Source: Psammoneis japonica (lineage: Eukaryota). Taken from it: a DNA stretch of 64,000 bases. Positions 53,301-60,538 of the stretch are shown in pieces. The stretch lies in NCBI GenBank assembly GCA_008632985.1, contig QPGO01000009.1, positions 1-64,000 on the forward strand, given 5' to 3'. Each line of letters begins with the position of its first letter. Position 1 is the first letter of the stretch. Both the position numbers and the translations under genes were made by a program. Under the pieces are notes generated by a model, which was not told the DNA's origin, searched no databases, and was given only the letters and a program-made list of their open reading frames with translations.

Positions 53301-55248
53301 CGTCTTGCTTTAAGACTGACGACCACCCATTACGGTAGAAGTGCGCATGTGCGAGCTAGAAGTAGTACTAAGGTAATGTATAGAATTACGAGCGAACGTT
53401 TTAGGAACTCTGTTTTCTATTCCTTTTAATTTGAGACGTGTTTTTATTGTCTCTCTAGAGAGGTATGATTTGTATTTTTTCATGGGAGCCTTGTAAAATT
53501 ATTGCTCCCAACGAATGCTCTTTTCTCTTCCGTCAATGTTTCAACAACAAGCTTGACTTCCGAAGCGACACGACTTACATGATAGCAATGCGAGCCTGAA
53601 ATAGAGTGTGGTCAATGAATTCTCTTTCGTCAATGTTGCCTCTCTGTTTCAACGTGACGTCTGAAACGGCCTCGGCTTACAGTACTGCGAGCCTGAATTC
53701 TTGAGCTGTAAAAGCGAACCGAGATGGCGCAAACGGCAGAGAAAGCGCGTTTCTCTGATAGATTGCAAAGTTCTTGAACCGACTGAGTCATCAAAATTAC
53801 GAGTACTAGCCTTCAAATGATCTGACATGGTCACCGGATGTCGTAACAAACACCTCTTCGGAAGGACTTGTTGGTGGAACCGGTGGGGGCATCTGGTGAG
53901 TTTTAGCTACTGCTTCGAGACTACCACACAGGTAGCCCTACTAGGCAACCCCACGACTGACGTAATGCCCCCCATTGGTGAAAACGTTGGCGAGTGTTGC
54001 GCTACTGCTTCGTGACTATCGGTAAAGGCTGCTTGCCCGGTCCGCCGATGCCCTATTAGGTAGCCCCGTCTAACGTCCACCTTGCCTTGCGGCAAAATTC
54101 GTTCTTCTCCCAACCAATGGATATGCGTGCGAGTTGTTGTGTCACTGCTTCGTGACTATGAGTAATTGACGAGAGGCTGAAGCCTTCACATCTACCCAAG
54201 CCCTAATAGGCGACCCCGCAATCTAACATTCCGTACCTGTGAATTCGTGTGCGAGTTCGCGTTACTGCTTCGAGTCTGGATAATTGACAAGAGGCCGTCT
54301 CGGGTTGCGAGACTGAGTGCCACGTCTATCCAAGTCCTAATGAGTAACCCCGCTTCCACGTTCACGCCGCCCCATGGCAGCAAAAGCCACAACAAGTCAA
54401 GTACGAGATTTTGCTACTGCTTCGGGTAGAGCAATTGACAAGAGGCCGTCTCTTATTCCAACGTTGTTGGGAGACTGAGTGCCACGTCTGCTCAATCCTA
54501 ATGGGTAGCCTCGCATTGCTGCTGTACTTTTCAAAACGTCCTTCTTGGTGAATCCAATCCCAAACCACAATCAGTACATCGCCTCGCCTTGAATATCCCA
54601 GACCGCCGTGCCGCAACCTAGACACGAGCACCTCAACGTATCCGCTTCTTGCCCACAACCACGGTGAATGATAAGTCTGTCTCTGTGTACGTACAAGAAG
54701 GCAAGAGCGAGTTGAGTGGATGAAATACAAAAGAAAAAGGAACAACACGATACACGATCACGACAAGAACACACGTACCTTACTCTGCAACGACAAAGCC
54801 GGCAGCAAGCAGAACGCCCATGGCCACCGCAAAGAGCGCCATGGTCAAAAGAGAAACACAATCAACTCCTCCATTTTACTGCCGTGTTGTTTGAGTTGAT
54901 TGTCAGAATTATGAGCAAATCGAGAGCGAGCGGAAGTCAGCATCGGATTGTTCGTGTACCAGAAGCACGTAAAATCCACGGAGCCTCAGTCCTCGGTCTT
55001 CCACGACTCGTGTGCTCTCGGTGCCTGGCAGGTTTCGACAACTTATCCTCTTGTGGGATCAGATATTTTCAAAAATGTCGGAACCGGTACTGGCATGCCG
55101 AATCTTCCAAAAACGAGCGGCAAATCGATCGCGAACGTCATGGTGAAGTCGCTCGTTTCTTTGATGATGGATGATGGATGCTTGTGTGTTGTGTGGTCGC
55201 GCGTTGGTTAGTAGTCATCGGATCTTTGCGGACGCACATCAGACGTAC
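52880..55248. repeat. near-identical ~2.4-kb direct repeat, copy 2
   Basis: See copy 1. Weaker homology continues to ~55635 (vs ~39110-39465). Confidence 0.95.
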
Positions 55249-55707: not shown

Positions 55708-58322
55708 TCATAACTCGTTCGAAATGCTTTCGGCTGCTTCATTTTCTCTAGAAGCTTGACGGGACAAAGAACGAGTGCTCTGCCTTGCTGCTCTACGCGC
55801 TTTGAAGATTCTCACGGCTTTTGCAAGGCCCTTCATCGCCGCCATCTGTCGCTCGGCTTCATCCAGTGTTGTGCCTCGAGCTTCGGCCTCCAGAAGCTGA
55901 AAGTCGACTCCATAGCCGCGCCTTAGAGTGTCGATATCATGCACAGTCGATAAGCCCGTCAAGAGGACGCAAGGTGACAATGCACGGATCGAAACGCCGG
56001 GCGTTCCGTCCTTGAGCAACCAATCGGTTGTCTCATTGCATTCATCTGAGTCTAGCGTCTCAACGTCCAATTGTATCAACCATGCTTTACCTATGAGATC
56101 GACAAAGTATAAGCAATTTGAGAAGACAACCGCTATTTTTTGGCAACCAGTGCTTCTGTATTAAGATAACTCACCAAGGGTGTCACCACGATTCAATGTT
56201 CGGATGGTATGCTGATCTCGCCTAACCTGGAGGGATCCACTCTGAACAAACACAAATTCGGGGGTGTACTGCTTACACTTCTCCATTAAATAGTCCCCTG
56301 TAAGAAGTGTCCGTGTCTGGGAAAGGCTACTGGATAACGCGACAAGAAAGCCGTTTGAGCAGTGCTCGAAGAAGGGGTCGCGACGACGTATCAATTCTGC
56401 CCTGGCATATATCGCCACTTCGACTTGGAGATACTTTGGTAGTGTGTCGAGGATATCATCATTCAAATCAAGACCGTCGCAAGTAGCGTCCGTACTACCG
56501 CCCTGAGCGCCACCTTGGCTTGCTTGTGTCAAGACATTTCTCATCATGTAGCCTTTCATGATGCGTTCTTTCGAAAACTGTGATACTCGCGCCGTGTTCA
56601 TGTAGTTGGAAAGCCTGAATATCTCGCTACCAATCTTGTTCTCGCGTTTGGACTCTTCTTCCAAAATGGCAATTACATTTCCCGTAAGGATGGCATAAAA
56701 TACTGCTCCGATCAAATGAATGACAAGAGTCGTCCAGCACTCCAGAGTACTAGACGGAGTACTTTCCACATTGCCAATACCCGACAAATTCACAAATGCC
56801 CAGTGAAAAGCACGAGAATACGAATTGAAAACATTGTTCCTAGTGCCGAATAGATCAGAGTCAGGGAGGAATGACGTTGGCGTGACCTCAGTTGCGTTGA
56901 TGCCAAGTTCAACTCTTGCCACGATGCACCATGCGCAGGCGGACCTGAAGAAGTCGAGATCAAAAGGCAAACGTCAGTGGGATGAGTTGAAACGAGTCCA
57001 TCCAGGATAATTCTTCTCTGAAATCCTTACACATGAGTAATGTAAACCAATCGAAAGAGAAGCTTAGCCATGTTGAGATGAAGCTGACGATCTGTATCCA
57101 GCTTCTGCTCAAGGAGAGCATTGTTCTCCGCACATTGCAGAAAGTGATTGACTCGAAACGCCGTCACCAAACGAATGAGCCCAAAGAGCTGGGTCCAATG
57201 CAAGCCCACTTGAGCACAAATCGACCCTCTCACAAAAATCCACTGCAAGGGGAAGCTCAAAAGTACCTTTGCGTCCATGGACGGCCAAGGTACCCATCGG
57301 TCCATCCTGTAAGACTGAACCATGCTTACAATGGAATATTGCTTTTTCATAAGAGCACGGCGGGCCGACTTCCCACCCGATTTTTTGTTTTCGCTTTTCA
57401 CCGGCTTGAGTAAATCCCTTCTCGAGGATGTGCTCTGGATGACAAACTGGCGGACCCTGAGTTTGGACTGGATGAAATCAATCGCCAAGTCCAAAGCAAG
57501 AACAAGAGCAGCCAACCCGTCTAAAATGTTGAGGAGTACAACCATATTGGGTCTTCCATAAAGAAAGCCAGCAAAACGAAAAGGAGTGACAAGCATGAAA
57601 TACGCACACGCAAGAAGCATGACAACTCCCCAGCCTCTTATGGGTTCCGTCTCCAATCGTTTTGACGGACTCTTGATAAGATCCGATATGGAGGTAAACG
57701 CTTGACTCCACGCGTCTTCAGTCTCCTGGTCCCAATTCTCAGGCCCCACCTCTTCACGAATAGCTCTGATTAGATGACGAAACAAAATATTGTAGTGCAT
57801 GGGCTTCACGCCGACCGTCTTGTGCGTCGCGCCCACTTGGCGAAGACGAGGAATCAAATCATCAATGCTGGTGAGTCCTGCCACACTTGTTCCGACCACG
57901 CGCATAACTGCAGTAGCATGTGCCCGAACATGAGCCTTGGTGCGAGGGTTGAGTATTAGCTTTCCCGTGTCCGAGTCGATATCATCCCCGAAAGGAAACA
58001 GCTGCAGAATTTCTGGATACTCATTGAACATACCGAGAAACACTTTTAATCCCACATCTCCAATTCGGTTTGAGATGGTGTACCAACTCTTCTCTACCCG
58101 AGATATCTTTTCGTTGCTGAGCTTAACCATATCTTCACGTGAACGTACACGAGGAAAATGAACCGCATATTTTGCATTCGCTTCGAGGCCGCTAAACGAA
58201 GCCTCGAAAGAACTTCTCCTGACCTTGTTCGATCCGGATGATTCCTCTACCTTCTCACCCTGAAGTAACGACTCCATGATCCGATCCTCATTCTCAACAT
58301 TTCCACTCATTGTCTCGTTCAT
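55708..58322 (-). CDS. globin-fused CNBD-family (CNG/HCN/KCNH-like) 6-TM cation channel, ~814 aa; exons 58322-57031, 56944-56175, 56090-55708
   Basis: Globin fold (VEKSW, GLKVFLGMFNEYPEILQLFPF, HATAVMRVV, GATHKTVGVKPMHY, W..ETEDAW), followed by S1-S5, pore YSRAFHWAFVNLSGIGNVESTP, S6, a C-linker (ILDTLPKYLQVEVA) and a CNBD-like beta-roll. Two GT-AG introns (86 and 84 bp) give a continuous 2445-nt frame. Confidence 0.88.
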
Positions 58323-58829
58323 GCTAAGCACCGGTGACGAGCCCAATTGTTATCGAACAAACTGCCGGTGGTTGGCTTCACTCAACGCAGTAGAGAGTAG
58401 TAGGGCCCTAGTGTAAACAGTGCTGTAGCGTGGTACTGTAGCGTGTAGCGTCCTCACCGAGCTCGACATGAGATTTTGATCTTTTTTACCGATCGAATCC
58501 GTTCCCAGCCTGACGCCCGTAAATACGTAAATTTGGCCAAATTATATTTATTTTACGGCCGAAATTATCAGGGTGGGAACGTGCCTGACTCAACAACCAT
58601 TGCGTCAATCGAACTCGATTTCTGCGAGAGCGAAGGCGAGCCGGCCGGCATCAGATGGAGAAATCTTTGACGTCACGATCAGTACTTACGAAAACGACGT
58701 TGCCTTCTACGTGAGTTTGATTTTGGAAAACTCCCTCCAACGTCAGACCCCCGTCGGTCTCTCTAGATATTTGCTCACACGGCTCGCACCTCCTTTGGAC
58801 CTCGGACGCTTCGACCAATCGCACGCTAC

Positions 58830-59509: not shown

Positions 59510-60538
59510 TTACTCGCCCTGCGGTTCCTCTTCGCTTTCTGGTTTGTCCTCGGCCACCGCTTGTGCTTCCGCCGCGGCCGCCGCTGCCTCTTCCGCAGCC
59601 TTTTTTGCATTATCTACAACCTTTTGCGCATTCTCCACGCTACCAAGACTGACGACACATTCGGCCATTCTCATAATGTTGCCTTGCAATTCCATACCCA
59701 TTTTGGTTGGGCGGATAATCACGCCCATATCAAACTCATCCGAAAACTCCTCTTCAATGGCAACCGCGCGGCTTTCGTCAAAGGCGTCGCCAATATTACC
59801 AGCTTCGTATTCTTCCACCTGTAGCTCCTTTTTCAAAAGAGTGGTGAATGCCCCGAGCAACCCACCGTACTGTTGTGCAAATTCATCCTCGGCATAAACC
59901 TCCTTGAGCCGTCTCAGTTCATCCAAGACGGGTAGAAAGTTAGAAACAACCTGGGCCTGTGCAGAGTACTTGTTTAACGATTCAAGGGACTGGAATAGTG
60001 CATATCATTGAACAATAAAAGGGTTAGCGAAACTGCAGCCATTGTCGCGAAAATACTCAAACCATGAACTGGTACATACCCTTCGAGTTAGGCGCATGTT
60101 TTGCATTTCAGCCACCCGTCGGGCGTATCCAGCCTTGGTGTACTTGTCCGCCTTTTCGAGTGCACGAGAGACCTCACGACGTTTGCTTTTGAGTTCGGAT
60201 TCCAAATCAGCAATCTGTTGTTTGAGCTCAGCTACTTCCGGATCTTCTGCTGGTGTCTCTTCTTCTTTTTCGTCTGCATCCTTTTCAACCTCCTCCTCCT
60301 CCTGTTTGTCTTGTACTTCCTGAGGACTTTCGTTGGCTGCCTCCGCTACAGGCTCTTCTTGATCTTCAGCGCCATTTTCCTCTTGAGCAAAGAGACGCAA
60401 AGAGGCGTACCGGATGTGTGGGTGTGACATGGAAGAAGAACGTTCACATCCGAACGGCGAGCTGACGGATAGAGGTGAAAATGCATTTGCAAGTTGGAGC
60501 AAAATCAAGAGTAACGAGACAAGCTTTGAGTCCATCAT
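59510..60538 (-). CDS. grpE: plastid-targeted GrpE-like nucleotide exchange factor; exons 60538-60080 and 59989-59510
   Basis: Coiled coil ending YARRVAEMQNMR, then NFLPVLDEL, GDAFDESRAVAI and GVIIRPTKMGMELQGNIMRMAECVVS, matching the GrpE layout. N-terminal signal peptide + ANA/FSP resembles the diatom ASAFAP motif. GT-AG intron 60079-59990. Confidence 0.85.

Follow-up and report, generated by a model that had tools for sequence, protein, structure and literature searches.

The genome of Psammoneis japonica contains a gene in which a globin is joined to an ion channel within a single polypeptide. The gene lies on the minus strand at 55708..58322 of a stretch of 64,000 nucleotides (contig QPGO01000009.1 of assembly GCA_008632985.1, positions 1 to 64,000 of the forward strand), referred to below as the window. 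Its product belongs, with very little room for doubt, to the CNG/HCN/KCNH superfamily, as a subunit of a tetrameric cation channel that carries a cytosolic N-terminal haem-type globin of the 3-on-3 fold, connected by a short conserved linker to the first membrane helix (S1). Since the membrane helices number six, an even count, the globin, the C-linker and the C-terminal homology domain are all placed in the cytosol. On balance, the sequence leads us to favour a sensory role, in which the ligand or redox state of the globin would gate the channel.

Gene model

The coding sequence was derived from the list of open reading frames (ORFs) and from the DNA itself. Between positions 55000 and 59500, the stop-to-stop list contains three co-linear minus-strand frames, at 57027..58349 (440 codons), 56161..56973 (270 codons) and 55708..56160 (150 codons), which correspond to three exons comprising 814 codons and a stop, from the ATG at 58322 to the stop codon at 55710..55708. 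Exon 1 (57031..58322) encodes the N-terminal region, the globin, the linker, helices S1-S4 and the first half of S5 (residues 1-430 and two nucleotides of codon 431), and thus ends inside S5, in the split codon of residue 431. Exon 2 (56175..56944; residues 431-688) supplies the remainder of S5, the pore, S6, the C-linker and the first half of the beta-roll, and exon 3 (55711..56090; residues 688-814) the rest of the cyclic-nucleotide-binding homology domain and a C-terminal tail. Both predicted introns are of the GT-AG type. Intron 1 (56945..57030; 86 nucleotides, phase 2) runs from a donor GT at 57030 to an acceptor AG ending at 56945, the only donor/acceptor pair by which the frame is kept; intron 2 (56091..56174; 84 nucleotides, phase 1) runs from a donor GT at 56174 to an acceptor AG ending at 56091 and contains an in-frame stop at 56163..56161. 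Joined by these coordinates, the exons give 2445 nucleotides and 814 codons with zero internal stops. Both exon junctions are free of indels in the alignment with seven database homologues, and the exon 2 product is 55-64% identical to 18 relatives.

The original prediction, which was made from the DNA letters, had proposed exactly this coding span and a globin-channel fusion in one spliced frame, and the derivation bears out both. It had also assigned the globin and S1-S5 to one exon: this holds except for the second half of S5, which falls in exon 2. Its further contention that the fusion is no splicing artefact stands, because the globin and S1-S4 share one uninterrupted open frame of 440 codons. 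That two neighbouring genes have been wrongly joined in the gene model is accordingly hard to believe. Both introns are predicted only, but the fusion of globin to S1-S4 requires no splicing, and the same fusion is present in independent genomes, metagenomes and transcriptomes.

The N-terminal globin domain

The globin was delimited to residues 70-217 (57672..58115, minus strand) from Pfam, PDB sequence matches, AlphaFold, Foldseek and invariant columns. Pfam Globin (PF00042) matches residues 93-214 at 55.9 bits (E 7.6e-15; cut-off 22), covering profile positions 2-115 of 117. The protein's own 168-residue stretch was modelled with AlphaFold from a 25-row alignment; this model has a predicted local distance difference test score (pLDDT) of 90.3 and a predicted template modelling score (pTM) of 0.82, and places helices at residues 70-217. 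Foldseek retrieved for this model the hexacoordinate haemoglobins of barley and rice, Hell's Gate globin and neuroglobin, all at probability 1.00 and with target-normalised template modelling (TM) scores of 0.71-0.91; for the entries 2oif and 3s1i the probability is likewise 1.00 and the TM score 0.83-0.91.

The key residues are Phe95 (B10), Phe109 (CD1; 57998..57996), His135 (E7; 57920..57918), Val139 (E11) and His167 (F8; 57824..57822), all on the minus strand. In 25 family sequences, with identities down to 30%, the positions without any substitution include His135, His167, the C2 proline and the Phe at B14; at least 90% of the sequences retain Phe109. Position B10 is occupied by Phe, Met or Leu in close relatives. 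The assignment of the distal residue required a choice: in the phmmer alignments to all three displayed plant haemoglobins, it is His131, four residues before His135, that stands opposite their distal His. His131 was dropped as E7, being a His in only 7 of the 25 family members as against 25 of 25 for His135. The latter was accepted because it is invariant and because its distance of 32 residues from His167 is the one expected from ungapped offsets to Vitreoscilla haemoglobin and the flavohaemoglobins, whose residues 53 and 85 we take to be the matching His pair. Thus the CD1 Phe, E7 His and F8 His that had been read from the sequence all check, the complete globin first placed at ~58121-57672 agrees with AlphaFold helices at 58115..57672, and both the globin profile match and the structural match that had been left to be verified were obtained.

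His131 (57932..57930) merits mention in its own right. It lies one helical turn from His135 on the E helix, is kept here and in six close relatives, and could serve as an alternative sixth ligand or gate.

As to lineage, the best PDB sequence matches are plant non-symbiotic haemoglobins (58-49 bits), followed by Hell's Gate globin, a flavohaemoglobin, neuroglobin and cytoglobin (down to 31 bits). The Pfam Protoglobin profile (PF11563), which represents the sensor lineage, reaches 15.5 bits, under its cut-off of 25, and no HemAT or other sensor globin is found among the 60 PDB sequence matches listed. By sequence, then, the domain is of the plant-haemoglobin/neuroglobin-like lineage and not of the lineage of bacterial globin-coupled sensors.

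This kinship bears on the possibility that the globin is a tethered enzyme (a nitric oxide (NO) dioxygenase, nitrite reductase, peroxidase or electron-transfer module) rather than an allosteric sensor. Such an enzyme would set the local level of NO or reactive oxygen at the channel mouth, protecting the channel or shaping its signal, while the gate would not be moved directly. Its nearest relatives by sequence and fold, namely the plant class-1 haemoglobins, Hell's Gate globin, the globin domains of flavohaemoglobins and neuroglobin, are associated chiefly with NO chemistry and redox reactions, and the failure of the Protoglobin profile to match points the same way. However, neither a reductase nor a flavin domain is fused to the protein or lies next to it, the neighbouring frames having given a GrpE match only, and B10 is Phe, Met or Leu instead of the Tyr that is typical of flavohaemoglobin-type dioxygenases. 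The strong conservation of the linker, described below, is also easier to explain by mechanical coupling than by tethering alone. We therefore regard catalysis as an unlikely primary role, albeit one that deserves serious consideration.

The globin might alternatively be a structural or assembly module, involved in tetramerisation, trafficking or docking, with its haem either constitutive or absent and with no ligand-dependent signalling; the channel would then be gated by voltage, by Ca2+/calmodulin or by another ligand. Non-haem globin folds do occur in signalling proteins, according to the available portion of one source (PMC8717448), and a conserved basic helix after the C-terminal domain could bind calmodulin. 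The invariance of the proximal and distal histidines and of haem-pocket positions in all 25 sequences, in spite of identities as low as 30%, would nonetheless be unexpected if haem were dispensable, and we give a purely structural globin a small chance.

Linker, membrane domain and pore

The linker from globin helix H to S1 consists of 13 residues (218-230; 57633..57671, minus strand). The Pro that ends helix H and the Trp that starts S1 are invariant in 21 of 21 family sequences. Next comes the S1-S4 block (57138..57632, minus strand), which was delimited from hydropathy, the family alignment and the AlphaFold helices of homologue P0006. Within the membrane domain, S1 spans residues 231-253, S2 260-285, S3 351-364, S4 374-395 and S5 414-442, with a loop of variable length (286-350) between S2 and S3. 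The charges of S4 are limited to Arg384, Arg390 and His393.

The pore helix and selectivity filter (residues 473-494; 56755..56820, minus strand) were located by phmmer and by the family alignment, the filter itself being residues 485-492. The filter of homologue P0004 was aligned by phmmer to the short threonine-isoleucine-glycine-glutamate filter of TAX-4. In the globin-channel protein itself, the filter core at 486-488 reads glycine-isoleucine-glycine and is followed by Asn489 at the position of the CNG pore Glu, with Glu491 two residues further on. Both filter glycines are invariant in 21 of 21 sequences, and several relatives carry Asp at the Asn489 position. The potassium signature Thr-x-Gly-Tyr/Phe-Gly is not present, as the filter core lacks the preceding Thr. 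From these sequence features we infer a CNG-type cation pore that is possibly Ca2+-permeable. S6 (498-527) and the C-linker (528-621) follow at 56374..56745 on the minus strand, positioned by alignment to TAX-4, CNGA1/3 and KCNH1 and by the helices of the P0006 model.

Affiliation within the superfamily was assessed by phmmer on homologue P0004, which ranked TAX-4 (63 bits, E 1.2e-16), CNGA3, CNGA1 and CNGA2 first; KCNH1 (47 bits), KCNH5, LliK and KCNH2 came after these CNG channels, and SthK lower. The alignment of P0004 with TAX-4 spans S5 to the beta-roll. Ion_trans exceeds its cut-off in five of the seven close homologues (25.7-41.8 bits). In the full-length AlphaFold model of P0006 (pLDDT 73.8), the expected helices, the C-linker helices and the beta-roll are visible, and a Foldseek search with this model returned CNG, KCNH5, Eag1, TAX-4, SthK and HCN1 over 500-640 columns (E 1e-14 to 1e-11), matches to be read as agreement in domain order. 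The initial description of a six-transmembrane channel of the CNBD family is thus upheld for the six-helix domain, the pore, the C-linker and the beta-roll, with the refinement that, as scored on P0004, the sequence of the channel core is nearer to CNG/TAX-4 than to KCNH.

The C-terminal homology domain

The cyclic-nucleotide-binding homology domain (residues 622-757; 55882..56373, minus strand) is interrupted by intron 2 and was delimited from the family alignment and the beta strands of the P0006 model. Pfam cNMP_binding matches it at 19.4 bits, against a cut-off of 27.5, over profile positions 2-55 of 89 only. The same profile is listed in five of the seven close homologues, always below its cut-off and from position 2 to ~58 of 89. 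A canonical phosphate-binding cassette, of the form Gly-Glu ... Arg-Thr/Ser, was not found in the globin-channel protein. The pair Gly688-Lys689 places Lys at the position of the ribose-binding Glu (Lys in 17 of 22 aligned rows, Glu in one, the distant member P0089), the cassette helix is replaced by an insert (residues 691-720) that varies from 0 to ~80 residues across the family, and Arg is absent from residues 690-722, the invariant Arg723 being located in the strand that follows. Because Lys stands in place of Glu, an insert in place of the cassette, no Arg is found at 690-722 and the Pfam match is partial and below its cut-off, canonical cyclic-nucleotide binding by this domain appears unlikely from its sequence. 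Such a degenerate pocket fits the CNBD-like domain and the KCNH analogy that had initially been put forward, and the loss of canonical nucleotide binding would leave room for another regulator.

We attach only a slight chance to the view that the protein is an ordinary cyclic-nucleotide-gated channel, with cyclic AMP or cyclic GMP as its main agonist and the globin as a minor modulator. CNG channels are its best solved relatives, and P0089 retains a Gly-Glu pair together with a cNMP_binding score of 29.1 bits. The canonical Glu is nevertheless a Lys here and in most relatives, the cassette region carries the variable insert, the segment 690-722 is without Arg, and the Pfam matches, which lie below the cut-off, extend no further than about position 58 of 89.

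P0089 is the fused member most remote from the others and the only one to keep the Gly-Glu pair, its cNMP_binding score being above the cut-off; judging by this sequence, the family may descend from a channel that did bind nucleotides. After residue 757 the protein ends in a basic tail that extends to residue 814. This tail includes a basic amphipathic helix (residues ~768-790; 55851..55783) that is conserved in close relatives and may, by analogy with the tails of plant CNGC and KCNH channels, be a calmodulin-binding site.

Conservation and distribution

An exhaustive phmmer search of 1.84 billion protein-cluster representatives yielded 833 matches at E<=1e-3, of which 144 had E<=1e-10 and 49 E<=1e-30. 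Chance is excluded by the 440-codon frame, the E value of the Pfam Globin match and these 49 relatives. Among the best 150 matches listed, at least 26 clusters show a single match that begins in the globin (at or before residue 131) and ends in the membrane domain (at or after residue 285). A word-indexed search for longer proteins retrieved the seven close homologues, which have 761-966 residues, 45-58% identity and the same module order. A Pfam scan of 18 wider fused members from the databases gave Globin above its cut-off in 18 of 18.

All five named sources of the fusion are diatoms: Nitzschia inconspicua, Seminavis robusta, a metagenome-assembled genome (MAG) of Bacillariaceae, Odontella aurita and Entomoneis paludosa. 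Three of these are raphid pennates (Bacillariales, Naviculales and Surirellales), another is a polar centric, and the MAG is assigned to Bacillariaceae, a family within Bacillariales. Transcriptome ORFs of the family come from Odontella aurita, Entomoneis paludosa and one MMETSP pair, and such transcriptome-derived members imply that a fused mRNA exists in relatives. Database labels are automatic only, and read 'Globin domain protein' (Seminavis robusta), 'hemoglobin-like flavoprotein' or 'Cyclic nucleotide-binding domain-containing protein'. As judged from sequence comparison, the globin-channel fusion is conserved across diatoms.

Conservation was also compared module by module between the globin-channel protein and its seven close homologues. 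The linker ranks highest of all modules, at 69-85% identity in all seven. The globin is 55-74% identical to six of the seven, and 32% identical to the Nitzschia model, whose globin part is mis-called. Identities are 48-64% for S3-S6, 50-63% for the C-linker and 49-62% for the homology domain, and they fall to 6-42% in the N-terminus, the S2-S3 loop and the tail. The values for globin and linker indicate that constraint on the putative sensor and its linker is at least as strong as that on the pore.

The large clusters that lie nearest in a protein atlas contain Ion_trans/cNMP_binding channels of stramenopiles and haptophytes, without a globin; scores are at most 0.90, and these clusters are leads only. 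The searches also brought up other chimeras of the same globin type. P0136 combines a SAM domain, a globin and a protein kinase, P0145 a globin and a truncated haemoglobin, and in the giant proteins P0009 and P0025 globin domains stand in tandem, 12 of them in the former and 14 in the latter.

Proposed mechanism and its weighing

In the mechanism that we propose, His167 of the globin would ligate the haem, His135 would act as the distal ligand or as a gate, and the haem would probably be bis-histidyl hexacoordinate, as it is in the closest globin relatives. Binding of oxygen (O2), NO or carbon monoxide (CO), or a redox change of the iron, would shift the E and F helices and helix H. The movement could reach the gate by two routes: through the rigid linker to S1 and the weakly charged voltage-sensor-like domain, or through contact of the globin with the ring of C-linkers and homology domains, in the manner of PAS in KCNH channels. 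The output would probably be a non-selective cation or Ca2+ flux, because the pore is of the short CNG type and lacks the potassium signature. In its strongest form the proposal holds that O2, NO, CO or the redox state of the iron directly opens or closes a Ca2+-permeable pore, which would make this the first channel with a built-in haem-globin gas sensor. That version we put forward tentatively, and with more doubt than confidence.

Several observations weigh against a sensory globin-channel or against parts of it. Haem binding is something that we infer from residues and fold, in the sequence and in a model. The globin is of the enzyme-prone plant-haemoglobin/neuroglobin type rather than of a dedicated sensor lineage. 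Taken alone, exon 2 gives only sub-threshold Pfam matches (Ion_trans 21 bits for a cut-off of 25, Ion_trans_2 17.5 bits and cNMP_binding 19.4 bits), and among the 18 wider members Ion_trans is listed in eight and above its cut-off in only four, cNMP_binding in five and above its cut-off in only one (P0089). Fragments of 449-574 residues make up six of these 18. No globin is seen in some relatives with 463-665 residues, which are either truncated gene calls or globin-less paralogues; most of them sit on contigs where a prokaryote-style gene call would stop at an intron. As for the full-length model of P0006, its inter-domain confidence is low (pTM 0.49) and its superposition on solved channels is poor (TM 0.2-0.35, root-mean-square deviation ~17 A), so that the model is uninformative as to the placement of the globin relative to the channel. 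With TM scores of only 0.2-0.35, the Foldseek matches confirm the order of domains in P0006 but not its global geometry. A docking run of the P0006 globin (residues 52-216) against its C-linker and homology domain (478-735), made without controls, gave a score of 0.00, which tells neither in favour of binding nor against it.

Relation to known systems

The protein resembles KCNH channels (EAG/ERG/ELK) in its six-helix channel, its C-linker, its homology domain without canonical nucleotide binding and its cytosolic sensor-type domain ahead of S1, and KCNH1, KCNH5 and KCNH2 are among its sequence and fold matches. It differs from them in having a globin where they have PAS, a non-potassium filter, and an S4 with two Arg and one His. 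No N-terminal PAS (eag) domain was found in a Pfam scan of exon 1 at E<=1, and its position is held by the globin. Haem also acts differently in KCNH channels, where it is a labile ligand and not the prosthetic group of a dedicated domain; free haem, for instance, inhibits Kv10.1, as stated in the available part of one report (PMC9420133).

With CNG channels (TAX-4 and CNGA1-3), its best solved relatives from S5 to the beta-roll by sequence and also by Foldseek, it shares a short filter that aligns residue for residue with that of TAX-4 and, in the P0006 model, a continuous S4/S4-S5 helix. Unlike them, it has Asn489 at the pore-Glu position (Asp in some relatives), a degenerate cassette and an N-terminal globin.

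The globin-coupled sensors, such as HemAT, DosC/DgcO and GsGCS, likewise combine an N-terminal globin with an output domain at the C-terminus in a single chain. Their globins are of the Protoglobin lineage, whereas the profile scores given above place the present one with Globin (55.9 bits) and not with Protoglobin (15.5 bits). Geobacter GsGCS has a membrane-spanning output, according to the part available of the work describing it (PMC8076648). The available portion of a globin review lists as outputs the domains of chemotaxis receptors, kinases, diguanylate cyclases and adenylate cyclases and does not mention an ion channel (PMC7475203).

The closest relatives of the domain itself, by sequence and fold, are the hexacoordinate globins (plant class-1 haemoglobins, neuroglobin and cytoglobin), with which it has in common Phe B10, His E7 and His F8. 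Those are soluble single-domain proteins, in contrast to the globin studied here, which is fused to a channel and whose close subfamily has a second His four residues before E7.

When the gene was first described no characterised example was known, and our literature searches, which covered their sources in part, found no globin-ion channel fusion either; the 2013 review 'Microbial eukaryote globins', a possible prior listing, was outside the search. The passages covered of PMC1457004 and of a Seminavis preprint likewise contain no such fusion. A survey of diatom Ca2+ channels makes no mention of globins in its available text (PMC11085791). The Seminavis genome paper describes benthic-specific globin-like families and raises the question of oxygen sensing, the available main text being without an ion channel (PMC7335047). 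The covered portion of its Supplement 3 has neither a row in which globin and channel terms occur together nor an entry for the Seminavis homologue Sro1928_g306050.

The architecture is certain; the function, as read from the sequence, is plausible. Haem-based gas sensors in the parts of the reviewed literature covered here feed chemotaxis receptors, kinases and cyclases, and labile haem is known to modulate ion channels. If the sensory role is true, a channel with its own dedicated globin wired into it would couple gas or redox chemistry in one step to electrical and Ca2+ signals. Diatoms, above all the motile sediment dwellers among which all named members are found, would then possess in one protein the means to convert oxygen or redox gradients into membrane potential and Ca2+ signals. 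The gene would offer a molecular entry point to the way in which benthic diatoms perceive steep oxygen gradients, and possibly a tool in the form of a genetically encoded gas-gated conductance.

Other features of the locus

The N-terminus ahead of the globin is unconserved except for a leucine-rich, acid-ended motif (residues 15-24; 58280..58251) that most of the seven close homologues also possess. In KCNH channels a cap helix at the N-terminus tunes gating, and the motif is reminiscent of it; AlphaFold confidence in this region of P0006 is low.

The next upstream frame, at 59513..60004 on the minus strand, has a Pfam GrpE match of 34.2 bits against a cut-off of 25.8. By this match the frame probably encodes an organellar co-chaperone and has no connection with the globin-channel gene.

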